39,162 nucleotides of DNA from Gemmatimonadota bacterium. Lineage in GTDB: Bacteria; Gemmatimonadota; Gemmatimonadetes; Palauibacterales; KS3-K002. Below are positions 2,725 to 36,604 of the stretch, one piece after another. Location of the stretch: assembly GCA_039589375.1 (NCBI GenBank), contig JBDHHL010000001.1, forward strand, positions 1-39,162. The letters run 5' to 3'. The notes under the pieces are model-generated. The model made no database searches, had not been told where the DNA came from, and worked only from the letters and a program-made list of their open reading frames with translations. The position numbers and the translations under genes are program-made. Position 1 is the first letter of the stretch; every line of letters starts with the position of its first letter.

Positions 2725-2778
2725 TTCGACCTCAGTCCCGCGTTGACAGTCTTTCCAGCTCCGTCCAAGTTTCGCGTC

Positions 2779-3978: not shown

Positions 3979-4010
3979 GCCGGACGCCCGATTCTAAGCC
4001 GGATGCCCGA
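3973..4010. repeat. 19-bp tandem direct duplication spanning the peptidase stop codon
   Basis: TTCTAAGCCGGACGCCCGA followed directly by TTCTAAGCCGGATGCCCGA (1 mismatch). Confidence 0.9.
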
Positions 4011-4031
4011 TCGGGTCAGTCGATGGCATCT

Positions 4032-5616: not shown

Positions 5617-6930
5617 CTACGACGTTGCGGCGACTCGTGCGCCTTCCACGGGGACATCTAGTTCACCTTCGGTCTTCGCCACCCAGATTGCGCAAACGGT
5701 ATCGCCCGTGACGTTCACCGCGGTGCGAGACATGTCGAGAATGCGCTCGACGCCCACGACCAGAGCGATCCCTTCCAGTGGGATGCCAAGCTGGGTCAGC
5801 ACGATGGTCAGGGTGACCATGCCAATCCCGGGGACACCGGCGGCACCGATCGATGCCAGTGTGGCCGTCAGCACGATGGTCAAGAGGTCGGTCAATCCCA
5901 AGGTGATGCCAAAGACCTGAGCGATGAACACCGCGCTTACGCCCTGGTAGATCGCCGTACCGTTCATGTTCACGGTCGCTCCCAGCGGAAGCACGAAGGA
6001 CGCCACCTGGTTCGATACGCCCAGATCCTCCTCGGTCACCTGCAGGTTCAGCGGCAGAGTCGCGTTGCTGGACGAAGTGGAAAACGCGAACACAAACACT
6101 TCGTAGTACTTCTTCAGGAAGAACCACGGAGACATCCCGGAGAGACGCAGCGAGACCGGATAGACGGTGATAGTGAAGACAATCATCGTTCCGATCGTAA
6201 TCAGCACGTATTTCAGCAGCGTTACCAGCACGCCGTATCCAAACTGCGCCGCCACAGCAACGATCAATGCGAAGACGCCGATGGGCGCCACCTTCATCAC
6301 GATCTTCACGAGGACGATCATCGCATCGTTGACGCCGTTCAGAAAATCCAGTACCGGCTTCCTGCGCTCCTCCGTAAGGATCGTCAGGGATATTCCGAAC
6401 AGGATGGCGAAGAAGATGATCTGCAGAAAATTGGTCTCCACCATAGCGCGGAAAGGATTCCTCGGAATGATGCGCACGAGAAGATCCGCGATCGAAGGCT
6501 TTTCGCTCAGCCGCTCGAGTTGCTCGGCGGTGACCCCCGCGAAGTCCGTGAGCACTCTCGCTTTGACCTCTTCATCCAACCCTATTCCGGGGTTCAGCGT
6601 CTTGGCCGCGATCAGACCCAAGGCGACAGCCAACGCGGTCGCCACGAGGTAGAACGCAACCGTCTTCAAGCCTATCCGGCCCAGCTTGCGCAAGTCGCCC
6701 AAGCTCGCCGTTCCCACGATCAGCGAAGCCATGACCAGCGGTACCACGATCATCACCAGCAGATTGATGAACGCGTCGCCCAACGGCTTGATCGCCGCGC
6801 CGAAGCCGCCAAGGATTGGTCCAAGCAAGGCGCCGAGGATAAGAGCGATCAGTATCTGGGTGTGCAGCTTGATGTTGCGGATTCTGTTGAAGATGCTCAT
6901 TGCCAACGGTCTTCTCTCCGAGGTCGTCAT
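5617..6930 (-). CDS. Dicarboxylate/amino acid:cation symporter (GltP/DAACS family)
   Basis: FSTSSSNATLP, PLGATVNMNGTA, ERILDMSRTAVNVTGD and many transmembrane segments. Confidence 0.92.
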   Translation of the reverse strand: MTTSERRPLAMSIFNRIRNIKLHTQILIALILGALLGPILGGFGAAIKPLGDAFINLLVMIVVPLVMASLIVGTASLGDLRKLGRIGLKTVAFYLVATALAVALGLIAAKTLNPGIGLDEEVKARVLTDFAGVTAEQLERLSEKPSIADLLVRIIPRNPFRAMVETNFLQIIFFAILFGISLTILTEERRKPVLDFLNGVNDAMIVLVKIVMKVAPIGVFALIVAVAAQFGYGVLVTLLKYVLITIGTMIVFTITVYPVSLRLSGMSPWFFLKKYYEVFVFAFSTSSSNATLPLNLQVTEEDLGVSNQVASFVLPLGATVNMNGTAIYQGVSAVFIAQVFGITLGLTDLLTIVLTATLASIGAAGVPGIGMVTLTIVLTQLGIPLEGIALVVGVERILDMSRTAVNVTGDTVCAIWVAKTEGELDVPVEGARVAATS

Positions 6931-7044
6931 GGATCGTCGGACGTCAACCGAACGAGTCTAGGATCGCCGCAAGATAGGGTTGGGCCCGAGGGCGCGACAG
7001 ACCACCTAGTACTGGACCACACCGGTACGGACAGGTTGGCCCCC

Positions 7045-7133
7045 TTGAATATCGAACACCGAATATCGAATGGCGAATAACGAAGAACTGTCCTTGGAAA
7101 GTCGACATCCGATGTTCAGTATTGGCAATTCAA
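7045..7133. repeat. Imperfect inverted repeat built of 7-bp units
   Basis: Left arm AATATCG AACACCG AATATCG AATGGCG AATAACG; the right arm 7101-7133 reverse-complements to TTG AATTGCC AATACTG AACATCG GATGTCG AC. Confidence 0.75.
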
Positions 7134-7223
7134 AGCCTGCCCCACGTCGTCCCTGCTCACACGTCACTACCGCTGTGGCCGGCCACCTAGCCGTGCCGGT
7201 GACCCCCAGATAGCTTTCGCGAC

Positions 7224-8186
7224 ATGATTAGAAGAGCGCTGATGTGGTTCTTCTGCCTCGCAGCTCTGCAGGCGTGTGGCCCGGATAGAACGGGCACCGT
7301 GTCCTCCGGCGAGGGTTCGGACTCAGCCCCCGATCCAGGCGCCGCACGACCGGTAACCGTGACCGAGTACACCACGAGCCTGCTATTCCTGCCGTTCGAG
7401 CCCGCCACCACGCGGGCTTTGATCTTGGACTTCGCCAACGTGGCAACATCCGATGCCGTTGACCATCGCTACCTCGGCTGGCAGCTGACTGGCTCGGGCT
7501 GGCGTACCATCCTCGACATCGAAGCTCGGGATGCCCCCCTGCGCGAGCCGTGGCGATTGTTTCCCGTGGACTCTCTGCGCCTGATGGTCACGGCCGACGG
7601 AGACGCCGACGCCGTTGTGCTGAGCACGGCATCGGGCGACAACACCCTCGACCTAGGCGAATACTTCGACCGCTGGGAGGACGGCGCGGGGACCCGGCAC
7701 GAGATCCGCGAAGCGCGGTGGATCCAGCGCGGCCAGCGGATAACCGGCGTCGCTGTCCAGCATCGGTTCGCCATACCGGAGCCCGACCAACCTTCCCGGT
7801 TCGGCCCCTACGATAGGGCCATACTCAGATCGGCGGACGGGGCTGTCGTCGTTCTGTTCAGCAGCCGCAGTCCCGAGACGTACGGCAGCTCCTACGCCTG
7901 GATGTACGCCGACGGTCTGTCGAGGCGCTGGACCGCCGTAGAATCGCGCACCGTGGAAGTGGCCAACGCTCCAGAGTTGCGTCGAAACGTGCCCGTTCGG
8001 ATCTGGTTCAGGATTCCGGAACCCGACATAAGAGCCGAGATCACGGTGGCCGAGCGTCAACTCAATGAATACCCGACTGCGCAGGGGCCGAAGCCGTACA
8101 ACGCCCTGTACCGGGTTAGAGGATGGATCGAGTTCGCGGGTGAGCGCCGCGATGTAGAAGGCTTGCTGGAGCGCGGAGAGACCTGA
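7224..8186 (+). CDS. Hypothetical lipoprotein
   Basis: Signal peptide with lipobox-like LQAC (Cys18); fills the gap between neighbouring genes; no family recognised. Confidence 0.7.
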   Translation: MIRRALMWFFCLAALQACGPDRTGTVSSGEGSDSAPDPGAARPVTVTEYTTSLLFLPFEPATTRALILDFANVATSDAVDHRYLGWQLTGSGWRTILDIEARDAPLREPWRLFPVDSLRLMVTADGDADAVVLSTASGDNTLDLGEYFDRWEDGAGTRHEIREARWIQRGQRITGVAVQHRFAIPEPDQPSRFGPYDRAILRSADGAVVVLFSSRSPETYGSSYAWMYADGLSRRWTAVESRTVEVANAPELRRNVPVRIWFRIPEPDIRAEITVAERQLNEYPTAQGPKPYNALYRVRGWIEFAGERRDVEGLLERGET

Positions 8187-24639: not shown

Positions 24640-25248
24640 TCACGTTGTCTTGGCCCTTCTGCTGACCCAGGCGCTCGTGGAATCGAAGAACCGCCACTCG
24701 CGATCAGCCCCACGACTGATGCCCACCCTGGTCGCCCGCACGACCCGGTTGTCGGGCAGTCGCTCACCGGCGGCGAGATAGAGAGGCGGTTCCCTGAGGC
24801 GGTGCCGCTGAAGGTCGGGACCGATGCCCATAGCCTGCGTCAGTTTCCCTGGTCCCGATGTGAGATCTCGATCCGCTCTTCCCCGTCGCCGTACCCGCAT
24901 GGCGTCGAGCCCGTCGATCGGCTCCAACGCTCGGATCAATACGGCGGCCGGGTAGCCCTCCACGCCGACCACAGCGTTCAGGCACCAGTGAACTCCGAAG
25001 TTCAGGTGGATGTAAGCTGTCCCCGGTGGGCCGTACATCGGGTCGTTGCGAGGCGTACGCCCGATGGACTCCGCCGCATGAGAAGCCGGATCGTGCGGAC
25101 CCGGATAGGCCTCGGTTTCCACGATCCGGCCCACACAACGCGCGCCGCCAACCTCCGAAACCAGAAGAGCGCCCAGCAGTTGCCTGGCTACCGTTTCGGC
25201 CGCGCCCTCGAAAAAGCCGACCGGCAACGGCAGATTCCGGCGATTCAC
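24640..25248 (-). CDS. mpg: DNA-3-methyladenine glycosylase (MPG/AAG family)
   Basis: GRIVETEAY.G..DPASH, AVLIRALEP, GPGKL, RVGIS, WRF. Confidence 0.93.
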   Translation of the reverse strand: MNRRNLPLPVGFFEGAAETVARQLLGALLVSEVGGARCVGRIVETEAYPGPHDPASHAAESIGRTPRNDPMYGPPGTAYIHLNFGVHWCLNAVVGVEGYPAAVLIRALEPIDGLDAMRVRRRGRADRDLTSGPGKLTQAMGIGPDLQRHRLREPPLYLAAGERLPDNRVVRATRVGISRGADREWRFFDSTSAWVSRRAKTT

Positions 25249-27575
25249 TCTCCGCCGGGGTTCAGCTCCTTCTGACGTGCTTCCAGGACACGCTCCGCCC
25301 GGTGATCAGGAAGGATCTGCCGCACCCGCTCCGGTTCCTGGTCCAGCACGCGAAACACGTCCGCGCCAAATGCGTCTACCAGCGACTCGGCGGTTCTCCG
25401 ACCGACACCGGCGTAGGCCGTCAGCCGGCCAATGAGGGCCGCGTTCGGGCCGCTCTCCACCGGCGCCTCTCGCACCTCTTCCTGCTCTGTTTCGGATGCT
25501 GCCGGCCGTTCGGTGGCACCTTCGCGCGGAACTTTCTGACCATCAAAGATCGGCGGCGGCGCAGCGGCGGGGCGATAGCGCCCCCTCGCGCCCCAGCGTC
25601 CACGAATCGTCCCGCGCGGAGCGCCCGGCAACGGGGCCGGTGCGACCGCAGAGTCTTCCGTTTTGGCGGCAGCTTTCTCCTCCGCCGGCGTCGCTGGTTC
25701 ATCGGCGGGCCGCGCCTCCGGCACCGAGGATGGCGGTGCATCTGCTGCCGGGGTGCCGGCGCCGACCAGCCCCTTCACGGGCGCGAATTCGGCTGGAGGC
25801 GCAGCCGCTTCAGGCGTCCGCTCGCCAGCCGTGGGTGCGCGCTCGGCGGTCTCCGGCACAACCGTGACAGCATCCGGCACAACCTCGACCTTATCCGGCA
25901 CGCGTTCGGCAGCTTCGGGTCTTCGCTCGCGCCCCGGGGGCCTAGAAGCACGCTCGGTCGCTTCGCGCTCGACCGGCTTCCGTCTTTCCTCACGCGGCCG
26001 GCGCTCGCCTCGACGCCGGCCAGTGCCGGGCCGCTGCTCTCCACGGCGTCCCTTCTCTCCACGGGCCGCCGCTTCGCCTCGGGGCGCACGGCCCGCAGGA
26101 CGCTGCCCCTTCTGAGTTCTAGCGGGCGCCGTTTCGCCCTGGCTGCGGGGCGCGCGACCGCCCCTCCTGTCCCGGGGAGCAGAGCTCTCAGGACGACGGG
26201 CGCGCTCCGCAGGCCTAGCCTTCTCAACTTCCTGCTTCGGCGTCTCGGCTGGCTTCTTTTCTTCCGGCTCCGCCTCCGCTTCCCGATCGCCGAACAGGAA
26301 GCGAGCCAGCCGCCGCATCGTACCCGCCTCCTGCTCTGGCTGCTCCTGCTGCTCCTGCTGCCCCGGCTGCTCCGGTCGCTCGGGCTCCGGCACCGCCGCT
26401 GCCTTCCTGCCCCGCTTGGCTGGCCCTTTCGAGAGCGACACGTGAAAGTTGCCGTTTGGGCCTCTTGTGAGCGATATCGTGCCCTGCTCCTCTGCCGCCT
26501 GCAGGAACTTGCTGAACTTACTGAACCCGATCTCGCCCTCGTCAAAACTCGGATCCAACTCTAGCAGCTTGCGTTTCACGTCACTGTCGCGAACCGATTC
26601 AGCTTCGCCTGCGAGCAGCACGCCAAGCGCCTGTCGTAGCAGACCCAGCGCGGATTTCATTGTTAGCTTGGGCCTGGCTCTGTTGGTCTGGACTTCCTCG
26701 GCCACCGCCTTGGCTGGGCGGCTTTCCTTCGCGCGCCGCTCGGGACCCTTCCGCGTCCTGGCCTCTTTCTTCTCCGGCTTCTCTTCCCGCTCGGCTTTCG
26801 CGGCTTTTGCAGCCGGCGCAACCCCGTACTGGCCGTTCTCCATCTTCTGGATCGAGAGCAGACCGCGGGACGCCGCCTCCACCACGAATCGGTTGAACTT
26901 GTTGAAGCCCTGTTCCTTTTCGTTGAACGACGGATCGATCTCGATCATGACCTGCTTCAGCCGGTCGGAACGCATGGTATCGCCCCGCTCGACCATCCTC
27001 TCGGCGGCCTTCTGCACCAGCACCCACGGGTCGTGGCTCTCCAATTGCTGGTCGCCGGTCTTGCTCAGGCCCGTCAGCGCCGAATAGCTGTAGTATTCAT
27101 CGCAGTTCTGTACCAGCAGGTCCGAGCTCGACTCCTGGATCCCCACGCCGATTATGTACTTCCCGTATTCCTTCAGTTTCAGGACCAGGCTCGAGAAGTC
27201 GCTGTCGCCCGACATGAGGATGATCGTCCGGATCTCGGGCCGAATGAAGACCAGCTCGAGCGCATCGATCGCCAATCTGATGTCGGTCGCGTTCTTCTTG
27301 GACGAACCGTAGGCTGGCGCGAATATCAAGTCGATCGATGCCTCGGAGAGCGGCACGATGTACTGCGGGTACCTCCGCCAGTCCGCGTAGGCGCGCTGCA
27401 CCGCTACTTTGCCGCGTATCACCTCCGAGTTGAGGAGATTCCGCAGCTCCTGGCCGAGATTCGACCGGATTCCCATCGTCACGTTGTCGAAGTCGATCAG
27501 CAGCGCGGCTTGATGTGTCTCGTCGACGTCGGGTCTCAAACTCCGACGACCTGGCGAGTCCTGTAGTCTGTCCAT
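25245..27575 (-). CDS. NYN-domain ribonuclease with two LOTUS/OST-HTH domains, a low-complexity linker and a C-terminal HhH-like domain
   Basis: LIDFDN, KNATD..LAID and SGDSDF (NYN); two DPSF.E...GF.KF..F repeats (LOTUS); GVGRRTAESLVDAFG at the C-terminus. GGAGG precedes ATG 27575. Confidence 0.88.
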   Translation of the reverse strand: MDRLQDSPGRRSLRPDVDETHQAALLIDFDNVTMGIRSNLGQELRNLLNSEVIRGKVAVQRAYADWRRYPQYIVPLSEASIDLIFAPAYGSSKKNATDIRLAIDALELVFIRPEIRTIILMSGDSDFSSLVLKLKEYGKYIIGVGIQESSSDLLVQNCDEYYSYSALTGLSKTGDQQLESHDPWVLVQKAAERMVERGDTMRSDRLKQVMIEIDPSFNEKEQGFNKFNRFVVEAASRGLLSIQKMENGQYGVAPAAKAAKAEREEKPEKKEARTRKGPERRAKESRPAKAVAEEVQTNRARPKLTMKSALGLLRQALGVLLAGEAESVRDSDVKRKLLELDPSFDEGEIGFSKFSKFLQAAEEQGTISLTRGPNGNFHVSLSKGPAKRGRKAAAVPEPERPEQPGQQEQQEQPEQEAGTMRRLARFLFGDREAEAEPEEKKPAETPKQEVEKARPAERARRPESSAPRDRRGGRAPRSQGETAPARTQKGQRPAGRAPRGEAAARGEKGRRGEQRPGTGRRRGERRPREERRKPVEREATERASRPPGRERRPEAAERVPDKVEVVPDAVTVVPETAERAPTAGERTPEAAAPPAEFAPVKGLVGAGTPAADAPPSSVPEARPADEPATPAEEKAAAKTEDSAVAPAPLPGAPRGTIRGRWGARGRYRPAAAPPPIFDGQKVPREGATERPAASETEQEEVREAPVESGPNAALIGRLTAYAGVGRRTAESLVDAFGADVFRVLDQEPERVRQILPDHRAERVLEARQKELNPGGE

Positions 27576-27805
27576 GCCTCCCGTAACTCCTTTTACCACA
27601 AATTGTTAGAACACACGGAGAGGCAGGCCGGCGGCGTCGCGCAAGGGGCGTTGGTTGGATACCCACCGGAAGGACTTCTGCTCAGCACTGGCAACGGCGC
27701 CGATGACAGCTCGAATACGCTGTTGTCCCAGCAGCCGTGCCCAACAGGTGCTTCCGGTATGACCGCCGCTTGGGCGTTAGCGAGCCCGTCCTCTCAGTTC
27801 ACCTT

Positions 27806-29482: not shown

Positions 29483-30610
29483 CTACCCGAACAGGGCAGC
29501 ACGAAGTGTCTCCTCGGTAACCTCGCGCGTCCACCCCATCTCGGCAGAACCCGCCACGGCTCCGATATCGTTGATCAGCGTGAAGCGGGTATGCCCCCCC
29601 TCACGCTTCTTGTCCAGTTCGAACGCCTTCATCAGATGATCGGGAACGACGTCTGCGTCCAACTCCACTGGCAGACGTGCCGAGACGAGCACATCCCGCA
29701 GCCGGTCCGTAACGCCCGGTCGCGTCACCCCGATCGCTTCCCCGATCGCGGCCTCCAAGACCATCCCCACCGCAACCGCCTCGCCGTGCAGCCAGCTGTA
29801 GCCAGAGACGGTCTCCTGGGCGTGAGCCACCGTATGCCCGAAGTTCAGGATCCGCCTGTACCCGGCCTCACGCTCGTCGCGACCCACCACCTCCGCCTTG
29901 ATCTCCACCGACCGGGCAACCAGTTGTGACAGCTTGTCCACTTCACGCGCAAACACGCCCGGCAGGCCTCCGGCCAGCCAGTCGAAATAAGCATCATCGA
30001 GGATCGCGCCGTGCTTGAATGCCTCTGCCAGGCCGGCGATGAACTGCGGCTCGGATAACGTGCTGAGCACCGTCGGGTCGATCAGAACCAGGCTCGGATG
30101 ATGGAACGCGCCCACCAGATTCTTGCCGGCCGAAGTGTCTACTCCGGTCTTGCCTCCTACGGAGCTGTCGACCATCGCCAGCAGCGTTGTCGGGATCTGC
30201 ACCACCGGCACTCCGCGCATGTACGTCGCCGCGACAAACCCCGCCAGGTCCCCTGCCACACCGCCGCCCACCGCGACGACGACGCTGTCACGACCGAAGC
30301 CGGCGCGCAGCAAACCGTCGCTCAGGTCCGACCATATCTCGCGCGTCTTGTTCCACTCACCTGCCGGAAACTTGAAGGGAACGCTCTCGAGGTTCTCACG
30401 CGCGAGCGCCGACTCCATTCGCTCGCCGTACAGCTCCGCAACGCGGCTGTCTGAGACTACCGCATAGCGATGAGCCGGGCAGGCCTCGGCGATCAGAGGC
30501 CCGCACTCGTCGAGAATACCGGCGCGAATCACGACATCGTAGGTGCTCGCCCTCTCGGCTCTCGCTGTATCGACGGCTACCCGGCGGTCTTCCAACTCTT
30601 CTTGTCCCAT
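29483..30610 (-). CDS. aroB: 3-dehydroquinate synthase
   Basis: GGGVAGDLAGF.AATYMRG, PTTLLAMVDSSVGGKTG, LNFGHT, HGEAV, DKK. Start uncertain. Confidence 0.95.
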   Translation of the reverse strand: MGQEELEDRRVAVDTARAERASTYDVVIRAGILDECGPLIAEACPAHRYAVVSDSRVAELYGERMESALARENLESVPFKFPAGEWNKTREIWSDLSDGLLRAGFGRDSVVVAVGGGVAGDLAGFVAATYMRGVPVVQIPTTLLAMVDSSVGGKTGVDTSAGKNLVGAFHHPSLVLIDPTVLSTLSEPQFIAGLAEAFKHGAILDDAYFDWLAGGLPGVFAREVDKLSQLVARSVEIKAEVVGRDEREAGYRRILNFGHTVAHAQETVSGYSWLHGEAVAVGMVLEAAIGEAIGVTRPGVTDRLRDVLVSARLPVELDADVVPDHLMKAFELDKKREGGHTRFTLINDIGAVAGSAEMGWTREVTEETLRAALFG

Positions 30611-30774
30611 CGAACGGTTCACATTCAGCATCAACGCACGCCAAACACGTGCAGCGTCTCGAGCCACCAAGCTAGCCACTCTGGATGGGACGATCAAATC
30701 GTCATTCGAGCTATCGCCTACCCGTCACGCACCCACATCGAGCCGATCTCGGTCGTCACGGCGGTACAAAAGTG

Positions 30775-30804
30775 TTTACAAAACTCTTTCCTTTTCATTA
30801 ATTT
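30775..30804 (+). promoter_or_regulatory. Putative promoter in the AT-rich divergent region upstream of the ATP-grasp/KamA operon
   Basis: TTTACA, 18-nt spacer, TAATTT within a markedly AT-rich stretch. Confidence 0.35.
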
Positions 30805-30953
30805 GTTTCTATCTTCGTTCGAGTTAAAAGCCGACAACTTCGTGCGAGCAGATGTGAGGTCGTTTCGTTCGGTCCTCGGACACTGCTTCGCTTTGCTGAA
30901 CTCCGACACGAGCGAGTACGATAGCACGCACAGCAGGTACAGCTCCCGACGCC

Positions 30954-32087
30954 GTGGAGGTTCGCCGCGGTTCGAACAATTTGCGCATCGGTTTCGCATT
31001 CAACGTGAAACCGTCGGCCGATGTATCACCATCGGCCGACGCCGACTCGCTCCAAAGCCAACCCTTTAACTTTAATTCTGACAACAAGATACAGCATCGG
31101 ATCGCGGCAGATGTTTCCGCGGATATTGCGGATACCTACGCCGAGTGGGATGACGAAACGACCATCGATGCGATCGAGAATTCACTCTCGTTTGCAGGCG
31201 AAGTCATCCGACTCGAAGCGACTGAAGATTTTCCGATCAACCTTCGCGAAGCGAGACCCGACATCGTTTTCAACTTCGCCGAGGGCCTGGGGGGGGTCAG
31301 TCGAGAGTCGCACGTACCCGCGTTCTGTGAGTTCTGGAATATCCCGTACACCGGCAGCGACCCTCTGACGCTGGGTCTCTGCCTCGACAAGGCGCGGACG
31401 AAGGAGGCGCTGATCCACCACGGGATACCCACGCCCGCTTACCAGGTGGTTGAGACCATCGAGGGGCTCGACCGCTCGATGGAGCTGCCGGTCATCGTGA
31501 AGCCGCTTCACGAAGGCTCGAGCATGGGCATCACAGCGCGATCACTGTGTGGTAGCTGGGAAGACGCCGAGCGCGAAATCGCCACGATCTTCGATCGCTA
31601 CCACGAGCCGGCGATCATCGAGAGGTTCCTTAGCGGACGCGAATTCACTGTTGCCGTCCTCGGCAACGACGGCGACGGACGCGTTCTTCCGATCGTCGAA
31701 CTGGATTTCGACGTTCTGCCAAGCGGCGCTCCACCTCTCTACGGCTTCGAGGCCAAGTGGATTTGGGACGGGCCCCATTCGCCGCTCGAGCTCTACGCGT
31801 GTCCCGCCAATTGCTCGCCGGCGTTGCAGAAGCGCATCGAAGGGATCGCGATGGCAGCGTTCAAGACTCTTCGCTGTCGAGATTGGGCCCGAATCGATAT
31901 TCGCTGCGACGAGTCGGACAACCCGTTCATCCTGGAGGTCAATCCCATACCCGGAGTTCTCCCGCAACTGGACAACAACTCGTGCTTCCCCAAGGCGGCA
32001 CGAGCGGCCGGACTGTCCTTCGACGACTTGATCCTGGCCGTTCTGAAAGCCGGCGCTGCTCGCTATGACCTTCGAGTCACCGTCTGA
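30954..32087 (+). CDS. D-Ala-D-Ala ligase-like ATP-grasp enzyme 1
   Basis: FNFAEG, PYTGS, DK, VKPLHEGSSMGI, GREFTV, RIDIR, LEVNPIPG; lacks the N-terminal GGxSxE of canonical Ddl. TTG at 30981 is an alternative start. Confidence 0.85.
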   Translation: MEVRRGSNNLRIGFAFNVKPSADVSPSADADSLQSQPFNFNSDNKIQHRIAADVSADIADTYAEWDDETTIDAIENSLSFAGEVIRLEATEDFPINLREARPDIVFNFAEGLGGVSRESHVPAFCEFWNIPYTGSDPLTLGLCLDKARTKEALIHHGIPTPAYQVVETIEGLDRSMELPVIVKPLHEGSSMGITARSLCGSWEDAEREIATIFDRYHEPAIIERFLSGREFTVAVLGNDGDGRVLPIVELDFDVLPSGAPPLYGFEAKWIWDGPHSPLELYACPANCSPALQKRIEGIAMAAFKTLRCRDWARIDIRCDESDNPFILEVNPIPGVLPQLDNNSCFPKAARAAGLSFDDLILAVLKAGAARYDLRVTV

Positions 32088-33189
32088 CCCGCGCGACGTG
32101 CAAGAGCGTCAGCTCTCGGTCGTACCCGGCCGTTCAGAATCGATGGAACGCGTCGCCGTGCTCGTCGACCAGGTGGCAGAACGCGCTTCCGGCGGTGATC
32201 TATTGGCTCCCGCCCAGGCGACCGTCCGGATCCTCTCCGTCCTCAGCGACCTCGGCTATCAACCGATCGAAGTATCGCTCGAGCCGGAGAAGACCGACGA
32301 GTGGCTCAAGGTCATCATGGACGGCGACTTCGATGTCGCGTTCAACCTCTGCGAGACGGTTGCGGGCATTGCCGCAGGCGAGTACCTGGCAGCCGCCGCC
32401 GTCGAGCTACTCGAACTGCCCATGACGGGCGCATCGGCCGCGACGCTGCTCCTCTGCCTCGACAAGGACCGCTGCTCGGCCATCCTGCGCACGAACGGGA
32501 TCAGCGTACCCGACTGGGCGGTCGTCGAAGAGGACGGCTCGCTACAGAAGGACTGGGAGCTTTTCCCCGTCATTGTGAAACCGGCGGCGGAGGACGCATC
32601 GAACGGAATCCACCCGAGCTCGATCGTGCGCTCGCACGGCGAGCTGCTCGAGGTCGTCAACCGCGTACAGGACAGTTGGGGGAGAGTCCTGATCCAGGAG
32701 TTCATCGAAGGGCGCGAGATCAACCTGGCCATAGTCGGAAAGCATCTGCTCCCGCCCGCGGAGATCGACTTCAGCACGCTGCCTGATGGATCGCCGCCTA
32801 TCGTCACGTTCGCGGCAAAGTGGCATCCCGACAGTCCAGAGTACGTCGGGACCGTCCCCATCTGTCCGGCACCGCTACCGCCTGGCAAAGCGGAACAGCT
32901 GCAGCGGCTGGCCGCGCGCACCTGGCAATTGATGGCCGGACGCGGTTACGCCCGGGTCGATATCAGACTCGCGGAGGACGGAACACCCTACGTCATCGAT
33001 ATCAACCCCAACCCCGACCTCTCCCTCGACGCAGGGTTGTTCCGCCAAGCTAGGGTCGCGGGCTGGTCGTACGAGGAGCTGATCGGGAGGATCGTCGAAG
33101 AAGCGCTACCTTCGGAGAACGGAGACGGCGTCGCGGACCACGGCTGGACCTTCGTTCAGCCACAGACTGAACGGATCGAAACGGTATGA
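32065..33189 (+). CDS. D-Ala-D-Ala ligase-like ATP-grasp enzyme 2
   Basis: FNLCE, DK, VKPAAEDASNGI, EFIEGRE, YARVDIR, DINPNPD. Confidence 0.85.
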   Translation: MTFESPSDPRDVQERQLSVVPGRSESMERVAVLVDQVAERASGGDLLAPAQATVRILSVLSDLGYQPIEVSLEPEKTDEWLKVIMDGDFDVAFNLCETVAGIAAGEYLAAAAVELLELPMTGASAATLLLCLDKDRCSAILRTNGISVPDWAVVEEDGSLQKDWELFPVIVKPAAEDASNGIHPSSIVRSHGELLEVVNRVQDSWGRVLIQEFIEGREINLAIVGKHLLPPAEIDFSTLPDGSPPIVTFAAKWHPDSPEYVGTVPICPAPLPPGKAEQLQRLAARTWQLMAGRGYARVDIRLAEDGTPYVIDINPNPDLSLDAGLFRQARVAGWSYEELIGRIVEEALPSENGDGVADHGWTFVQPQTERIETV

Positions 33190-33737
33190 GCTCACCGCTG
33201 GGGGCGCACTCGGAGCCGAGCGCGAAGACGTCGGTCGCGTCCGATCGTGCCGCGTCGTCAGCGATCGAGTGGAAACCGCCGCAAAGACCACATCGACCGA
33301 GGATCGCCGAGATCGTGGAAAGCGCCGGCGTCTTCAGGACCGACGAAGTCGACGTGGCGCTAGAAGTCTTTGATTGCTACTGCGATGCGCCCGGCAAGGA
33401 CTATTGGGCTATGGGCGCCTACTCGGAGCCGGATCAACTGGCCGGTTTCGCTTTCTACGGGCCGACACCCTGCACCGTAGACACCTGGGACCTCTATTGG
33501 ATCGTCGTGGGCACAGGGTTCCAGGGCCGCGGTGTCGGGCGCGGTCTGATCGAGCAGGTCGAGCAGCGGATACGCTCGGCCGGAGCTCGCATGTGCGTAA
33601 TCGAGACGTCGTCACGCGACGATTACTCCGCGACCCGCCGCTTCTACCTTAGCTGCGGTTATCGCGAGGTCGCGCGGATCGCTGACTTCTACGACGTCGG
33701 TGACGACAGGGTCACTTACGCAAAGCAGTTCGAGTAG
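33186..33737 (+). CDS. GNAT-family N-acetyltransferase
   Basis: DLYWIVV...QGRGVGRGL acetyl-CoA motif A and TRRFY..CGY; ATGA overlap with the upstream gene. Confidence 0.9.
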   Translation: MSSPLGAHSEPSAKTSVASDRAASSAIEWKPPQRPHRPRIAEIVESAGVFRTDEVDVALEVFDCYCDAPGKDYWAMGAYSEPDQLAGFAFYGPTPCTVDTWDLYWIVVGTGFQGRGVGRGLIEQVEQRIRSAGARMCVIETSSRDDYSATRRFYLSCGYREVARIADFYDVGDDRVTYAKQFE

Positions 33738-33830
33738 TCGCTGTCTCTCCGCGGTGGAGAGATACGGTGGGGTGGCCGGGCATCGTCCCTAGGCCTGCAT
33801 CTCTGGACCAGGATCGACGAGGTGTGCGAA

Positions 33831-34904
33831 ATGGGGAACTGGCAACAGGTACTCAAACAGAGTATTACTGACGTTGACCAGCTCATCGAACAGTTCGGCG
33901 AGGAGAACATCGACCGCCTGGCCGTTCAGGAAGCGATCGAGAGTTTCAACCTGAGGATCACACCTGCGGTGCTAGAGGCGATCAAGCAGACCGGTGACGC
34001 TTTCTGGCAGCAGTACGTGCCCTCGCCCGAGGAGAACGAAGTCCTCGACGGCAAGGCCGACTCACTCGGCGAGGACGATGATTCGCCGGTGCCGAACATC
34101 ACGCACCGGTACCCGGACCGCGTCCTCTTTCTCGTCAGCCCCGTCTGCGCCACTTATTGTCGCTTCTGCACGCGCAGGCGGAAGGTGGGCGATCCCGAGA
34201 AGATTCCCCTGAACCAGTTCAACTCGGCATTCAAGTACATCCGCGAGCACACAGAGATCCGTGACGTTATCCTCTCCGGCGGAGACCCGTTGATGCTATC
34301 GGATCGCCGCCTCGAACATATTCTGAAAAGGCTGCGCGACATTCCGCACGTCGAGATAATCCGGATCCATACGAGGATGCCGCACCACCTTCCCGAGCGC
34401 ATCACGCCGGAGCTGTGTGATACGATCGCCAACTATCACCCGGTATTCGTCAACGTGCACTTCAATCACCCGGCAGAGCTCACGCCCGAGGCGGAGGAGG
34501 CACTCTCCAGGCTCGCGAGCGCCGGCTGTCCGCTCGGCTCTCAGACCGTCGTGCTCAAGGATATCAACGACGACCCGGAGATCATGAAGCAGTTGATGCA
34601 AAAGCTGCTCAAGAACCGCGTACGGCCCTACTATCTCTACATGGCCGATCCTATTGCCGGGGCTGAGCATTTCCGCACCTCCATCGAGAAGGGCTTGGAG
34701 ATCATCAAGGCGCTGCGTGGCTGGACGTCGGGGCTCGCGGTGCCCCACTTCGTGATCGACGCGCCGGGCGGAGGAGGAAAGATCCCGCTGCTGCCGCAGT
34801 ATGTGGAGGAGATCAGCGACGACGAGGTGCTGATGCGCAATTATGCGGGCGATCTCTACAGCTATCCGTTGCCGAAGGAGTTGGTGCTGGCGTCTCTGCT
34901 GTGA
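33831..34904 (+). CDS. KamA-family radical SAM/PLP enzyme (lysine 2,3-aminomutase-like)
   Basis: HRYPDR, CATYCRFC, SGGDP, HFNHP.E, PYYLY, DAPGGGGKIP (PLP lysine). GAGG precedes ATG 33831. Confidence 0.92.
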   Translation: MGNWQQVLKQSITDVDQLIEQFGEENIDRLAVQEAIESFNLRITPAVLEAIKQTGDAFWQQYVPSPEENEVLDGKADSLGEDDDSPVPNITHRYPDRVLFLVSPVCATYCRFCTRRRKVGDPEKIPLNQFNSAFKYIREHTEIRDVILSGGDPLMLSDRRLEHILKRLRDIPHVEIIRIHTRMPHHLPERITPELCDTIANYHPVFVNVHFNHPAELTPEAEEALSRLASAGCPLGSQTVVLKDINDDPEIMKQLMQKLLKNRVRPYYLYMADPIAGAEHFRTSIEKGLEIIKALRGWTSGLAVPHFVIDAPGGGGKIPLLPQYVEEISDDEVLMRNYAGDLYSYPLPKELVLASLL

Positions 34905-34955
34905 AGTGAGAACTGCAGATCGCGAGGATGTCCGAAGGGGGGCGAGCGGAAACGC

Positions 34956-36227
34956 TCAGCCTCCCTTCGTGTCGAGATGGACCTCGGGCGGGTCGTCTAG
35001 CTCGACCCCTGTCCCCGTCTCCAAAACGCGCACGAAGGGCATGCCTTGCACCGTTAGCCGGTCAACGCGCGTCTGTCTGCCCTCTCCCACCAGGCGAGCC
35101 CCAGCGCCCTCGCCTCCGAAGCGCGCTATGAACGCCGTCCGGTAGGCGTCGGCGAACTCATCCGCGTCGGCCTCGGAATCCCATACGGTGTACCAGACGA
35201 GCCCCAGATCCGCCTCCCGGGACAGGACGGCGTACGCGTCACCGTCCCAGCCCGCGGAAGCTCTGGCCGCGAAGCTAGCGTCCCCGAGATGCTCCTCGAA
35301 GTAGATCCGCATCTCCAGTTCGCCCAGGTCGCCGGCGTACTTCACCTGCCAGCCTCCTGACGGCTCGGAGATCACCAGCGGGGTCGGCTCGTCGCGGCGC
35401 TCGAGCAGCTTCTCCGTATGCAGCAGTTGCTCCGTGGACTCGGGCAGCCAATCTCCTAGCGGCGGTGGCTTGTGCGACTGGGTGCGCCACAGCCTCTGCA
35501 CGTAGCGAGCGCCACCCAGGTAGGCGAACAGCAGCGGGTCCCTCACGATGGCCGGAGCTTCAGCCAGGCGAGGGAACGTCGCCGCGTTGACCACGGCGGC
35601 CGCCATCTCCGGTCCCAGGTCGGGAAGTTCCTCCGACGGCGCCCCGAGCTGATACGAGAACATGGCAACCGTGGCCTGGCCTTCCATGGCGGCCTGGATC
35701 GCCGAACGCGCGTCGTTTCGCGTCACCGAATGGACCAGCGAATCGAGATCGACCTGCTGGTCCTGAAGAGCGTGCACGAGCTCGTGTGCGACCACCGCGT
35801 CCAGCATCGCAGGGGGAGCGTCCTCGCGGATGAAGAGGACGTCGCGGGCCGGATCGTAGTAGCCCACCGCCTGCTCGAGCATCAGGTCGATCAGCAGTCG
35901 GCGAACGTCCACCGTATCCGGGATCAGGTCGAAGAGCTTGTACGCCAGCGCCAGGTTCTCCAGCGAGTCACCGGGGAACTCCGACTCGAGTTGTTCCAAG
36001 AGATAGGCCTCCAGCGTCTCGGCGCTGGCGCGTCGCACGGCGGGAACCCGCTTCGCCTCCAGGGCCGCGTATTCCTCAACCTGGGGCAGAAACTCCTCGA
36101 CCATGCGCTCCAGCTCGGGATCGCTAACGCTGGCCTGCTGGCCTTCAGAGTCCCGGCTGCAGGCGCCAGCGGCCCACGCGACGGCCACGGCCAGGACGAT
36201 CGAAGCAAGCGATGTCCGACGCCTCAT
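34956..36227 (-). CDS. Lipoprotein with zincin-like HExxH metallopeptidase motif
   Basis: Lipobox AGAC; GYYDP; AHELVHALQDQ followed by AMEGQA (third ligand); P.STEQ.LH; AGWDGD. Confidence 0.75.
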   Translation of the reverse strand: MRRRTSLASIVLAVAVAWAAGACSRDSEGQQASVSDPELERMVEEFLPQVEEYAALEAKRVPAVRRASAETLEAYLLEQLESEFPGDSLENLALAYKLFDLIPDTVDVRRLLIDLMLEQAVGYYDPARDVLFIREDAPPAMLDAVVAHELVHALQDQQVDLDSLVHSVTRNDARSAIQAAMEGQATVAMFSYQLGAPSEELPDLGPEMAAAVVNAATFPRLAEAPAIVRDPLLFAYLGGARYVQRLWRTQSHKPPPLGDWLPESTEQLLHTEKLLERRDEPTPLVISEPSGGWQVKYAGDLGELEMRIYFEEHLGDASFAARASAGWDGDAYAVLSREADLGLVWYTVWDSEADADEFADAYRTAFIARFGGEGAGARLVGEGRQTRVDRLTVQGMPFVRVLETGTGVELDDPPEVHLDTKGG

Positions 36228-36604
36228 GCCTCGTACTCCGCCCATGCCCCGGGTACCTGCGTCACCCTCACCTTCGCCAGTCGCACTCGCTCTCCGAACT
36301 CACGCTCGAACTCTCGGCTCAGGCGCTGGAAGAAGTACTCGGCCTGCCGCTCCGCGCTGGGGACGCAGTCAGCGAAGGGCTCGAGCTCGTTCAGCAGGCG
36401 GTGGTCGAGAACCGCGGCGACCTCGTCCAGCAGCGGCTGCGCCCTCTCGAAATCGACCACGAAGCCGGACTCGTCCAGGCCGTCGGCCTCGAGCACAGCT
36501 TCCACCGTATACCCGTGACCGTGAGTCCTGCCGGCCGGTCCCTTGTCTCCGGGGATGAAGAGGGCCGAATCGTAGGACGCCGTGACCGCCGCACGGTACA
36601 CCAT
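36224..36604 (-). CDS. Atypical 6-pyruvoyl-tetrahydropterin synthase family (COG0720) protein
   Basis: HGH.Y.VE, GFVVDF, LDHRLLN, PSAE; no Cys before HGH and the first His is replaced (DSALF). Confidence 0.8.
   Translation of the reverse strand: MVYRAAVTASYDSALFIPGDKGPAGRTHGHGYTVEAVLEADGLDESGFVVDFERAQPLLDEVAAVLDHRLLNELEPFADCVPSAERQAEYFFQRLSREFEREFGERVRLAKVRVTQVPGAWAEYEA

Follow-up and report, generated by a model that had tools for sequence, protein, structure and literature searches.

Introduction

The AblA/AblB pathway yields N-epsilon-acetyl-beta-lysine, a compatible solute of methanogens. The EpmB/EpmA system for beta-lysylation of EF-P, in which a KamA-family aminomutase makes beta-lysine that is then ligated to an amine in an ATP-driven reaction, resembles the proposed route of the locus described here in both of these steps. 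In pyrrolysine biosynthesis, PylB, which is not known to belong to the KamA family, makes 3-methylornithine, and PylC is a Ddl-like ATP-grasp enzyme; Ngg, from another pathway, contains an ATP-grasp-type domain. According to the accessible part of the source, the radical SAM enzyme PylB rearranges lysine, after which the ATP-dependent ligase PylC joins a second unit (PMC8225853), which is the same rearrange-then-ligate logic as that proposed for our locus. In the route to N-acetylglutaminylglutamine amide (NAGGN), as outlined in the available portion of the source, N-acetylation of an amino acid and peptide-bond formation are united in the single enzyme Ngg, and Ngg and AsnO together give a small acetyl-capped dipeptide osmolyte with no need of a ribosome or NRPS (PMC8070244).

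The locus belongs to a Gemmatimonadota genome from marine sediment and was analysed within a window of 39,162 nucleotides (the whole stretch of DNA considered). With a probability of about 0.6, its four genes (Table 1) work together as a single biosynthetic cassette whose product is small, derived from beta-lysine, amide-linked and N-acetylated; lysine would be converted to beta-lysine, joined by two ATP-dependent amide ligations and then N-acetylated. A first-pass annotation had already proposed that beta-lysine is made, acetylated and ligated into a small peptide, and at the level of sequence this proposal is supported by conservation, gene fusions, the identity of KamA and the departure of the ligases from Ddl substrate positions. 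In our literature searches, no product or function assigned to such a cassette was found.

Table 1. Genes of the four-gene cassette, with positions in the window.
Gene	Description	Positions	Strand	Basis
Lig1	Ddl-like ATP-grasp ligase	30954-32087	+	ORF, 377 aa, GTG start
Lig2	second Ddl-like ATP-grasp ligase	32065-33189	+	ORF, 374 aa
GNAT	small acetyltransferase	33186-33737	+	ORF, 183 aa
KamA	KamA-family radical SAM/PLP aminomutase	33822-34904	+	ORF, 360 aa

Gene Arrangement and Conservation

The ORF coordinates bear out the earlier description of four co-oriented genes between 30954 and 34904 with the first three overlapping, the overlaps being 23 nt (Lig1/Lig2) and 4 nt (Lig2/GNAT), and a gap of 84 nt separates GNAT and KamA. 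Pfam and NCBIfam profile searches likewise agreed with the initial statement that the window holds no efp, epmA or lysine-fermentation gene.

KamA, two ligases and GNAT occurred together in 23 of 56 loci in the KamA-seeded search, in 43 of 80 in the fusion-seeded search and in 49 of 80 in the GNAT-seeded search, and because of these counts across the seeded sets, the arrangement is far beyond chance. Of the distinct KamA rows, 109 of 176 were in a full cassette. KamA with two ligases and without GNAT was present in a further 12 and 4 loci; the 12, which lie within the KamA-seeded 56, are those of Rokubacteria/Methylomirabilota, and acetylation is therefore not obligatory. The GNAT-seeded set also contained GNAT alone (20/80) and ligases with GNAT but no nearby KamA (6/80). 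Carriers fall under at least 17 phylum labels of bacteria and archaea, and the labels of full cassettes include Gemmatimonadota, Ignavibacteriota, Bacteroidota, Acidobacteriota, Verrucomicrobiota, Planctomycetota, Thermodesulfobacteriota, Calditrichota, Spirochaetota, Hadarchaeota and Thermococci; two archaeal loci have a different GNAT type (Acetyltransf_3). Prolixibacter denitrificans (L137) is a carrier that is available in culture.

Fusions link the same genes. KamA is fused to Lig1 in 74 of 120 long KamA homologues (a Lig1-like domain is present in 74 of the 76 that bear a ligase), and a ligase is fused to GNAT in 20 of the best 150 GNAT-family representatives, 15 of these ligases being nearer to Lig2; both fusions also occur in the archaeal loci L039 and L040. 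The doubt raised at the outset, that the four genes might not be conserved together, is answered by their conservation across many phyla and by these fusions. Unbiased clustering of the neighbouring genes turned up no further family that accompanies the cassette across phyla: no exporter, envelope gene, regulator, carrier or target protein, or depolymerase is conserved.

The genomic context bears on the idea that the product is an antimetabolite or antibiotic containing beta-lysine, with GNAT (and a deacetylase, see below) as a self-protection and activation pair. Streptothricin-type antibiotics contain beta-lysine and are inactivated by GNATs that acetylate it, and phosphinothricin tripeptide biosynthesis uses acetylate-then-deacetylate protection. 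A negamycin-type cluster, which in the accessible part of the report combines beta-lysine formation with ATP-grasp enzymes, is a further precedent (10.1101/2025.05.27.656397). However, the cassette has no conserved exporter or resistance transporter beside it, it lies in a syntenic housekeeping context in Gemmatimonadota (aroB on one side, folK on the other), and the spread over very many phyla, including small-genome archaea, would be unusual for a specialised antibiotic; we hold this explanation to be highly improbable.

KamA as a Lysine 2,3-Aminomutase-Type Enzyme

KamA matches the Pfam families LAM_C (3.2e-20) and Radical_SAM (1.9e-14) and scores 299.1 bits on TIGR00238, above the cut-off of 199.2. 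Its best-scoring NCBIfam model is AblA, with 444.8 bits against an equivalog cut-off of 525.4, followed by the Glu-aminomutase (385.7) and Arg-aminomutase (328.2) models. On the EpmB model it reaches 247.6 bits, below the cut-off of 369.3, while E. coli EpmB reaches 533.9.

Alignment to the solved lysine 2,3-aminomutase 2a5h (E = 8.8e-106) confirmed the earlier reading that KamA keeps CxxxCxxC (C109/C113/C116), the PLP lysine (K320, equivalent to K337) and both lysine-specifying aspartates (D276 of YMAD, equivalent to D293, and D313 of VIDAP, equivalent to D330; chain numbering as counted from this alignment). Of 109 cassette KamAs, 108 retain the Asp pair and the last has a gap in the alignment there, and two Glu-aminomutase-like controls have K/N at these positions. 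In a FastTree phylogeny, in which many branches are weakly supported, cassette KamA lies within the lysine 2,3-aminomutase clade and far from E. coli EpmB, and stand-alone Bacillota homologues above the AblA cut-off (569.8 and 578.4 bits) fall among the cassette KamAs. Grouping with EpmB, considered initially as a possibility, is contradicted by both the score and the tree distance. Since KamA scores below the AblA equivalog cut-off, it is the two Asp residues, together with its place in the tree, that speak for its probable lysine specificity. As a first step, sequence gives good support to a radical SAM/PLP reaction in which KamA turns L-lysine into beta-lysine.

The Two ATP-Grasp Ligases

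Both ligases match Dala_Dala_lig_C (Lig1 3.4e-35, Lig2 2.5e-26), and neither has a Pfam match to Dala_Dala_lig_N, unlike the canonical Ddl encoded elsewhere in the host genome. They are about 33-35% identical to each other. The AF2 models (pLDDT 84.2 for Lig1, whose first strand covers residues 10-16, and 88.3 for Lig2) predict the full three-domain Ddl fold for both; Foldseek top matches were all Ddl structures for Lig1 (TMt 0.79-0.85) and Ddl for Lig2 (TMt up to 0.86). Residues 23-55 of Lig1 are a disordered low-complexity insert. PylC was absent from the ligase sequence matches at E<=1e-5 and from the Foldseek matches listed, and, in another difference from the pyrrolysine pathway, the cassette has no PylD-like gene.

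In E. coli DdlB numbering, Lig1 keeps K97, K144, S150, K215, R255, D257, E270, N272, G276 and S281, with Y216 changed to W and L282 to C. Lig2 keeps K97, K144, K215, R255, D257 and N272, and its family has W216 (124/124), A281 (93/124), G282 (120/124), D or C at 276 (120/124) and A or G at 150 (124/124). Across the 124 pairs, the ATP-grasp catalytic residues are common to both ligases and the substrate positions are family-specific, the roles of the latter being those that we take them to have in Ddl. Compared with the Ddl/Van ligases (D-Ala-D-Ala, D-Ala-D-Lac, D-Ala-D-Ser), the fold and the ATP, Mg and transition-state residues are therefore shared features, whereas both proteins stay under every Ddl/Van NCBIfam cut-off (best Ddl scores 178.4 bits for Lig1 and 128.4 for Lig2, cut-off 243), they cannot be aligned over the Glu15 motif, Trp (or Glu) takes the place of Tyr216, and Lig2 differs at Ser281/Leu282. 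The earlier claim that neither ligase has the Ddl GGxSxE motif fails as a literal string, as Lig1 contains GGVSRE (residues 113-118), but it is true in the homology sense, because this stretch aligns with the His63 loop of DdlB and not with the N-terminal Ddl motif, and because Dala_Dala_lig_N is unmatched. Synthesis of plain D-Ala-D-Ala, raised as a counter-possibility by the first-pass annotation, is unlikely in view of the separate canonical Ddl, the scores below cut-off and the changed substrate positions.

It could also be supposed that KamA and GNAT alone make N-epsilon-acetyl-beta-lysine and that the ligases are unrelated cell-wall Ddl paralogues, adjacent by chance. The rank of AblA as top model for KamA fits this, as do AblA-AblB-type KamA-GNAT fusions in Chloroflexota (by precomputed Pfam columns and source names). 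Yet the GNAT is not AblB (TIGR03827 is unmatched in the protein and in the host genome), many lineages have the ligases joined to KamA and to GNAT in fusion proteins, murein-less archaea carry the ligases too, the Ddl substrate residues are altered in them, and a canonical Ddl is present elsewhere in the host genome, which makes the supposition scarcely credible.

Acetyltransferase and Accessory Deacetylase

The GNAT (Acetyltransf_1, 4e-10) belongs to a distinct family of 868 representatives at E<=1e-30 with one solved structure, 2r7h, a "putative D-alanine N-acetyltransferase" (E = 2.1e-28). Invariant residues of the family include E54, E60, Y73, W105 and an ETSS block, and the acetyl-CoA loop is QGRGVGRG.

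In 19 related loci the cassette is accompanied by an acetylpolyamine-amidohydrolase (APAH)-like deacetylase, fused to GNAT in four of them; it was not found in the window or the host genome. In the PDB it matches acetylpolyamine amidohydrolases best (E 1e-70 to 6e-58), compared with 4e-31 for bacterial histone-deacetylase-like amidohydrolase (HDAH) entries, and unlike APAH it has an extra N-terminal domain of ~265 aa without a Pfam match. This partner indicates a small amine-bearing product, and its position beside GNAT or in fusion with it, as in the pairing of APAH with polyamine acetyltransferases, suggests that acetylation of an aliphatic amine would be reversible in the lineages that carry it.

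An unlikely alternative is that the ATP-grasp enzymes attach beta-lysine or a short beta-lysyl peptide to a protein or envelope polymer, for example to the EF-P lysine of the KPGKG loop by an EpmA-independent route. RimK and LysX are ATP-grasp enzymes that modify proteins, the host genome encodes EF-P with a KPGKGG loop and has no EpmA over the cut-off, and, its self-match aside, 2r7h most closely resembles RimI-type protein N-acetyltransferases. On the other hand, substrate sites of the Ddl fold are small, KamA is not EpmB-like, the cassette ligases are ATP-grasp enzymes and not LysRS paralogues, the cassette has no conserved neighbour that encodes a target or carrier protein, and the deacetylase is closest to small-molecule acetylpolyamine amidohydrolases. 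Archaea, which do not use bacterial EF-P, also carry the cassette (L039, L040, L123; fusions named Woesearchaeota and Thermoplasmatota). Regarding other uses of beta-lysine, no BKACE of lysine fermentation was found in the host genome.

The ligases might also act repeatedly to form a cyanophycin-like polymer or storage compound, with GNAT providing a primer or cap. Cyanophycin synthetase does combine two ligase activities, for backbone and branch, a division of labour that Lig1 and Lig2 could share, and one long homologue (P0117) fuses an S51 peptidase domain (cyanophycinase/PepE family, 1.8e-16) to ATP-grasp and KamA domains. P0117 is unique, however, as S51 is absent from 215 loci, the host genome and the other 119 long homologues; no depolymerase is conserved beside the cassette, and an acetylpolyamine-type deacetylase fits a small molecule, so that a polymer appears very unlikely.

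Proposed Pathway and Product

For the small-molecule cassette, the fusions suggest that Lig1 would receive beta-lysine directly and form the first ATP-dependent amide bond via an acyl phosphate. Lig1 keeps the second-site carboxylate-binding Ser281/Gly276 of Ddl and has lost the first-site Glu15/Tyr216 features; judging by only a few aligned positions, we guess that beta-lysine serves as acyl donor and that the nucleophile is an ordinary amino acid whose carboxylate is free, and the substrate order is a guess of the same kind. Lig2, with both substrate sites remodelled, may add a third unit or make a second linkage, and GNAT would acetylate a primary amine that is still free, most probably one at an aliphatic omega position, for instance the epsilon-amine on the beta-lysyl unit.

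Since the cassette is not accompanied by any conserved exporter, regulator or carrier protein, its product most likely stays in the cytoplasm as a solute, and its role most likely that of a compatible solute or polyamine-like metabolite. Among the roles named in the first-pass annotation (solute, storage compound or envelope modifier), a small soluble amine compound is favoured, and an envelope modifier is disfavoured, because of the APAH-like deacetylase and the lack of a conserved exporter or envelope gene.

A compatible solute could be related in logic to N-epsilon-acetyl-beta-lysine and NAGGN. As with AblA/AblB, the locus combines the gene of a lysine 2,3-aminomutase-type KamA with that of a GNAT, and the proposed product is a small cytoplasmic beta-lysine derivative; in contrast to that pathway, the two ligases are integral parts, as the fusions indicate, and the product must therefore exceed acetyl-beta-lysine in size. 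The Lig2-GNAT fusions parallel the union of acetylation and ligation in Ngg, as far as the available portion of its description goes, although Ngg uses glutamine without an aminomutase, and the amidotransferase AsnO has no counterpart in the cassette. Within Gemmatimonadota, the cassette is patchy (68 of 151 genomes), and the habitats of its carriers are not limited to saline ones.

Layout and conservation of the cassette

The four genes of the cassette were described in the first-pass annotation as co-oriented, with the first three overlapping, and this is borne out by the ORFs at 30954-34904 of the forward strand: Lig1 and Lig2 overlap by 23 nt, Lig2 and the GNAT gene by 4 nt, and a gap of 84 nt leads from the GNAT gene to KamA. 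Both flanks consist of housekeeping genes on the opposite strand: upstream lie aroB, an acyl-CoA ligase and an NYN-domain protein, and downstream folK and tyrS together with a surface/metallopeptidase-like protein. The remaining window content is ordinary. The closest relatives are Gemmatimonadota MAGs (KamA identity up to 95%). Coordinates of the cassette and of the other features discussed are collected in the following table.

Coordinates of the cassette genes and of further features in the window, in other contigs of the source genome (G000) and in related loci (L-numbers)
Feature	Sequence	Positions	Strand	Description
Lig1	window	30954-32087	+	377 aa; Pfam Dala_Dala_lig_C 3.4e-35
Lig1 insert	window	31020-31118	+	residues 23-55; low complexity, predicted disordered
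Lig2	window	32065-33189	+	374 aa; Pfam Dala_Dala_lig_C 2.5e-26
GNAT	window	33186-33737	+	183 aa; Pfam Acetyltransf_1 4e-10
KamA	window	33822-34904	+	360 aa; Pfam LAM_C and Radical_SAM
NYN/LOTUS protein	window	25245-27599	-	784 aa; N-terminal NYN ribonuclease-like domain, OST-HTH/LOTUS domain
Protein convergent to KamA	window	34956-36245	-	429 aa
ATP-grasp/M20 fusion	G000 C38 (L070)	5927-8080	+	717 aa
ATP-grasp/M20 fusion	G000 C438 (L069)	2325-4175	-	at least 616 aa
Ddl-like paralogue	G000 C439 (L071)	1796-3127	+	443 aa
Protein downstream of archaeal fused cassette	L039	11828-13030		400 aa
Protein downstream of archaeal fused cassette	L040	11955-13169		400 aa
CxxCxxCC protein	L229	1628-2149		PF03692
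Deacetylase	L206	4127-5926		
Deacetylase	L229	4183-6435		
KamA gene set without Ddl-like ligases	L020	3999-9080		Longimicrobium MAG

That the four genes are conserved together was seen in three locus searches from different seeds, with architectures assigned by tblastn. The KamA seed gave 56 loci, 23 of them with the full cassette (KamA, two ligases and GNAT), 12 without GNAT (all of Rokubacteria/Methylomirabilota type), 5 partial at contig ends and 16 with KamA alone; an alignment of KamA-ligase fusions gave 80 loci (full cassette 43, without GNAT 4, partial 4, KamA alone 29); and a GNAT alignment of 6 sequences also gave 80 (full cassette 49, two ligases and GNAT with no nearby KamA 6, one ligase and GNAT 4, KamA and GNAT 1, GNAT alone 20), the three sets sharing some contigs, which means that the counts are not additive. 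Among the loci with GNAT alone, several are short contigs or belong to Gemmatimonadaceae, and where ligases and GNAT occur without KamA (e.g., L177) the neighbours are unrelated. A full cassette surrounds 109 of the 176 distinct KamA sequences, in two gene orders (Lig1-Lig2-GNAT-KamA and KamA-Lig1-Lig2-GNAT) that match two groups of the KamA tree.

The cassette rows are labelled Gemmatimonadota, Ignavibacteriota, Bacteroidota, Kryptoniota, Calditrichota, Verrucomicrobiota, Acidobacteriota/Aminicenantes, Planctomycetota, Thermodesulfobacteriota, Myxococcota, Bdellovibrionota, Pseudomonadota, Spirochaetota, Bacillota, Hadarchaeota and Thermococci; one carrier, Prolixibacter denitrificans DSM 27267 (L137), is cultured. 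Within Gemmatimonadota the KamA orthologue is patchy, being found in 68 of 151 sampled genomes (E<=1e-60; the tally includes the source genome and one unpublished genome, G057) and in 40 of 83 genera. When 4294 ORFs from 136 loci were clustered, no further cross-phylum family emerged beside the cassette, and no transporter, regulator or carrier protein. The cassette is real, well delimited and strongly conserved. As to what such a gene set might make, we consider a storage polymer very unlikely, and an antimetabolite made together with self-protection no likelier than that.

Because aroB adjoins Lig1, a mycosporine-like pathway was also considered; it was rejected since AroB passes the true aroB equivalog (369.4 against 305), the window AroB as query finds no other aroB in the genome, and the aroB-Lig1 adjacency is confined to Gemmatimonadota. 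Two neighbouring proteins deserve mention in their own right. The NYN/LOTUS protein keeps synteny with the cassette region in Gemmatimonadota only, as does the position of the protein convergent to KamA, which gives two low-scoring matches, one to the Hvo_1808 surface-protein family (95 bits, below 200), the other to the putative metallopeptidase DUF6782.

Rfam gave no match over the whole window, nor over 30600-31150 at a relaxed threshold, and a scan of 30400-35300 was uninformative (0 promoter-like sites; 2 terminator-like sites against 3.0 expected). The DNA sequencing runs in which the region is best represented are labelled as metagenomes of marine sediment, and the source sample may be among them. 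The sole RNA-library run (X20) contains two 151-nt contigs with 0-1 differences within the GNAT gene (33241-33534), which does not count as evidence of transcription, as DNA is possible in such libraries.

KamA as a predicted lysine 2,3-aminomutase

KamA aligns to the Clostridium lysine 2,3-aminomutase structure 2a5h (E 8.8e-106), and residue equivalences counted along this alignment show that it keeps, as had been read from the sequence earlier, the CxxxCxxC radical SAM cysteines (C109, C113 and C116), the PLP lysine (K320 of GGGGK, equal to K337 of 2a5h) and both aspartates, D276 (YMAD) and D313 (VIDAP). The latter correspond to D293 and D330 of 2a5h, which we take to be the residues holding the side-chain (epsilon) ammonium of lysine. 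In an alignment of 176 distinct homologues from the fetched loci, the window included, with E. coli EpmB added, CxxxCxxC is unchanged in 176/176 rows and the PLP lysine is kept in 175, the remaining row being gapped. The first Asp is present in 109/109 cassette rows and the second in 108/109, the exception being an alignment gap in one frame-shifted locus. In L052 and L056 the two Asp are replaced by Lys and Asn, presumably the substitution typical of glutamate 2,3-aminomutase, and for L056, the one of the pair that was scanned, the highest score comes from the glutamate-aminomutase model (604.2 bits); the Asp columns therefore discriminate the substrate type.

The sole curated model that KamA passes is the TIGR00238 family model (299.1, cut-off 199.2). 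It ranks highest on AblA (TIGR03820 equivalog, 444.8, below the cut-off of 525.4), followed by glutamate 2,3-aminomutase (385.7), arginine 2,3-aminomutase (328.2), AblA_like_2 (322.8) and EpmB (TIGR03821, 247.6, below 369.3). A FastTree phylogeny rooted on E. coli EpmB, which forms a long outgroup branch, places the cassette KamAs in two large groups (39 and 85 rows), with stand-alone homologues of Bacillota, Nitrospirota, Poribacteria and Chloroflexota between them; the stand-alone Bacillota KamAs, with 569.8 and 578.4 bits, exceed the cut-off of the AblA equivalog. Since many inner branches have weak support, nothing finer than clade placement was drawn from the tree. By these sequence comparisons, the cassette KamAs belong to the lysine 2,3-aminomutase clade as ordinary members, and the grouping with EpmB that the first-pass annotation had raised against its own proposal is not seen, given the score below the EpmB cut-off and the distance in the tree. 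The predicted conversion of L-lysine to beta-lysine by KamA is well supported by sequence.

Beta-lysine could also serve for the modification of a macromolecule, as in EF-P beta-lysylation, and the genome does encode EF-P with a KPGKGG loop. Unlike in the EpmB/EpmA system, the window KamA lies below the EpmB cut-off and a partner EpmA over its cut-off was not found in the genome (best 248.1 against 286.9, in a 522-aa frame of LysRS size), the genome being 87% complete and genome-wide absences thus provisional; we regard macromolecule modification as unlikely. With the same proviso, the lysine-fermentation enzyme BKACE was not found in the genome. The 5,6-aminomutase model had no match there, nor in control genomes, so this search is void.

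Two ligases related to Ddl in fold

The AlphaFold models of Lig1 (pLDDT 84.2) and Lig2 (pLDDT 88.3) are confident and superpose on complete Ddl, sharing its ATP-grasp fold and three-domain architecture. All top Foldseek matches listed for both models are Ddl structures, the first at E 3.8e-25 and TMt 0.79 for Lig1 (TMt up to 0.85) and at E 4.8e-24 and TMt 0.86 for Lig2. Unlike Ddl, Lig1 and Lig2 stay under all curated Ddl/Van cut-offs (at best 178.4 and 128.4 bits, respectively, against 243), have no match to Pfam Dala_Dala_lig_N, which the genome's own Ddl matches at 1.1e-22, and differ at the substrate residues. The first strand of the Lig1 model (residues 10-16) supports the early GTG start; the insert lies between this strand and the rest of the N-domain, and in relatives outside Gemmatimonadota the alignment begins only at about residue 55.

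For the substrate positions, 124 Lig1 and 124 Lig2 sequences were aligned to E. coli DdlB numbering, where we take positions including Glu15, Ser150, Tyr216, Ser281 and Leu282 to be the Ddl substrate residues. The region of the Glu15 motif is mostly gapped in both families; the other positions are displayed in the table below.

Residues of the two ligase families at positions of E. coli DdlB (124 sequences each)
DdlB position	Lig1	Lig2
K97, K144, E187, K215, R255, D257	kept in all 124	kept in all 124
N272	N 123/124	N 123/124
150	S or T	A or G 124/124
216	W 85, E 30 of 124	W 124/124
276	G 123/124	D 82, C 38 of 124
281	S 123/124	A 93/124
282	C 74, D 38 of 124	G 120/124

With the residues in the first two rows kept, both ligases are predicted to be active. 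To judge from these columns, Lig1 and Lig2 should be distinct, separately conserved enzymes with different predicted ligations, neither of them the Ddl reaction. The earlier observation that the Ddl GGxSxE motif is missing from both ligases holds in part: Lig1 does contain a literal GGVSRE (residues 113-118), but the string aligns with the His63 loop of DdlB and sits within an invariant FN.AEG..G.SRE block of the Lig1 family. Plain D-Ala-D-Ala synthesis is unlikely, in view of the sub-cut-off scores, the changed substrate positions and the presence, on another contig (C41) of the genome, of a canonical Ddl that has both Pfam domains.

Further Ddl-like paralogues are encoded in the same genome. 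In two of them a Ddl-like ATP-grasp is fused to an M20 peptidase, and both fusions adjoin a gamma-glutamyltranspeptidase, the C38 copy also an N-formylglutamate amidohydrolase-family gene; these make up a separate ligase/peptidase cluster, apparently uncharacterised. The paralogue on C439 (39% and 37% identity to Lig1 and Lig2, respectively) adjoins an ABC-2 type transporter pair and an aldo/keto reductase.

Gene fusions, the acetyltransferase and an accessory deacetylase

A single ORF encodes KamA and Lig1 in the loci labelled Hadarchaeota and Thermococci (739 and 731 aa), where Lig2 is fused to a GNAT of another Pfam type (Acetyltransf_3). A Ddl-like domain is present in 76 of the 120 long KamA homologues listed (182 found), in 74 of these 76 being nearer Lig1 than Lig2, while the best 150 GNAT-family representatives include 20 ligase-GNAT fusions, 15 of them nearer Lig2, and one further representative that is a deacetylase-GNAT fusion. 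This pattern suggests that Lig1 acts next to KamA and Lig2 next to the acetyltransferase. A predicted complex of KamA and Lig1 scored 0.00, which is informative neither way.

The GNAT protein scores 40.4 bits on Acetyltransf_1 (above 20.7) and contains QGRGVGRG, presumably the acetyl-CoA loop. Its family is well defined, with 8847 representatives at E<=1e-3, 2639 at 1e-10 and 868 at 1e-30 among 1.84 billion in a profile search. The sole close solved relative is 2r7h (E 2.1e-28), deposited as a 'putative D-alanine N-acetyltransferase'; no functional study of it was found in the literature searched, and one paper appears to use it only for structural comparison. The locus tags that we assume to be at its source (Dde_3042-3046) were likewise not found mentioned in that literature.

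AblA/AblB is, in our view, among the closest analogies to the cassette, and a plain acetyl-beta-lysine pathway with unrelated ligases would need KamA and GNAT only. Unlike in AblA/AblB, the window GNAT does not match the AblB model (TIGR03827), which has no match in the 87%-complete genome either, and KamA lies below the AblA equivalog cut-off; such a pathway is hardly credible.

In 19 loci the cassette is accompanied by a Hist_deacetyl-domain protein (2.8e-73; about 580-600 aa) that is absent from the source genome. Its gene lies between Lig2 and GNAT, directly behind GNAT, behind KamA or, in divergent orientation, upstream; between phyla the protein keeps 48-61% identity, and in 4 loci it is fused to GNAT. 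Its best solved relatives are acetylpolyamine amidohydrolases (APAH; E 1.2e-70 to 6.1e-58), followed by HDAC6 (2.5e-55) and bacterial histone-deacetylase-like amidohydrolase (HDAH) entries (about 4e-31). An APAH-like partner suggests that the GNAT substrate is a small aliphatic amine, and that the acetylation may be reversible in some lineages. In all 19 loci, L206 and L229 among them, the deacetylase begins with a conserved stretch of about 265 aa that matches no Pfam family.

Proposed pathway and its significance

The best-supported reading of these sequence data is that the four genes form one pathway to a small beta-lysine pseudo-peptide. KamA would convert lysine to beta-lysine, two successive ATP-grasp amide ligations would follow, Lig1 before Lig2, and the GNAT would then N-acetylate a free amine, with a small cytoplasmic beta-lysine pseudo-peptide as the product. 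We infer the order of steps after KamA from fusions and gene order, while the ligase substrates and the acetylation site are guesses. As a role, a compatible solute or a polyamine-like metabolite is favoured. To hypothesize more broadly, the cassette could stand for a widespread unrecognised class of metabolite, an N-acetylated beta-lysine pseudo-tripeptide made without ribosome or NRPS that would serve as a compatible solute or in place of a polyamine and would be spread over at least 17 phyla (among the lineages named are Gemmatimonadota, Ignavibacteriota, Bacteroidota, Acidobacteriota, Planctomycetota, Thermodesulfobacteriota and several archaeal lineages), with APAH-like reversible deacetylation in some; we give this a probability of roughly 45%.

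The chemistry builds on known beta-lysine and ATP-grasp reactions, and the cassette is not a new type of system. To our knowledge, beta-lysine has only a few roles, namely in the osmolyte acetyl-beta-lysine, EF-P modification, lysine fermentation and some antibiotics, and the cassette, if the reading is true, adds another, very widespread pathway. PylB/PylC offers a close analogy to the proposed logic, lysine being rearranged and then ligated (PMC8225853). Ngg, which both acetylates and ligates to give the osmolyte NAGGN (PMC8070244), parallels the ligase and GNAT by analogy only; no Ngg model is among the best 25 of 33 NCBIfam matches listed for the Lig2-GNAT fusion of L039.

The first-pass annotation mentioned similar clusters in other bacteria with no assigned product. 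No description of the cassette was found in the literature searched on aminomutases, ATP-grasp enzymes and beta-lysine, which excludes most subscription papers. The carriers are sediment, soil and groundwater lineages, mostly uncultured, and the product might turn out to be a new compatible solute or polyamine analogue with a bearing on stress physiology in marine sediments. Its identity would assign a function to thousands of genes annotated as 'D-alanine--D-alanine ligase family protein' or 'KamA family radical SAM protein', would give structure 2r7h a function, and would put right the systematic misannotation by which Ddl paralogues are taken for cell-wall enzymes. The breadth and the missing product make the cassette a good experimental target.

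Other gene contexts of KamA

Several loci show additional partners. The 400-aa protein downstream of the archaeal fused cassette (66% identity between the two archaea) belongs to no Pfam family and has a hydrophobic N-terminus and C-terminus. In five loci (L229, L228, L210, L217 and L225) a small CxxCxxCC putative metal-binding protein lies between KamA and Lig1 and may assist the radical SAM enzyme. Unusual fusions among the long KamA homologues (P-numbers) include P0006, P0005 with a dCTP-deaminase-like domain (235.5 bits on PRK07559), P0117 with an S51 peptidase and ATP-grasp, the only occurrence of this peptidase found, and P0119 with GARS/PurD-type domains (precomputed Pfam assignment). 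In the Longimicrobium MAG, a KamA 68% identical to that of the window neighbours a PGM1-like ATP-grasp (PreAtp-grasp and PGM1_C), a branched-chain polyamine synthase C-terminal-domain protein and methyltransferases, a gene set that may be a different beta-lysine pathway.
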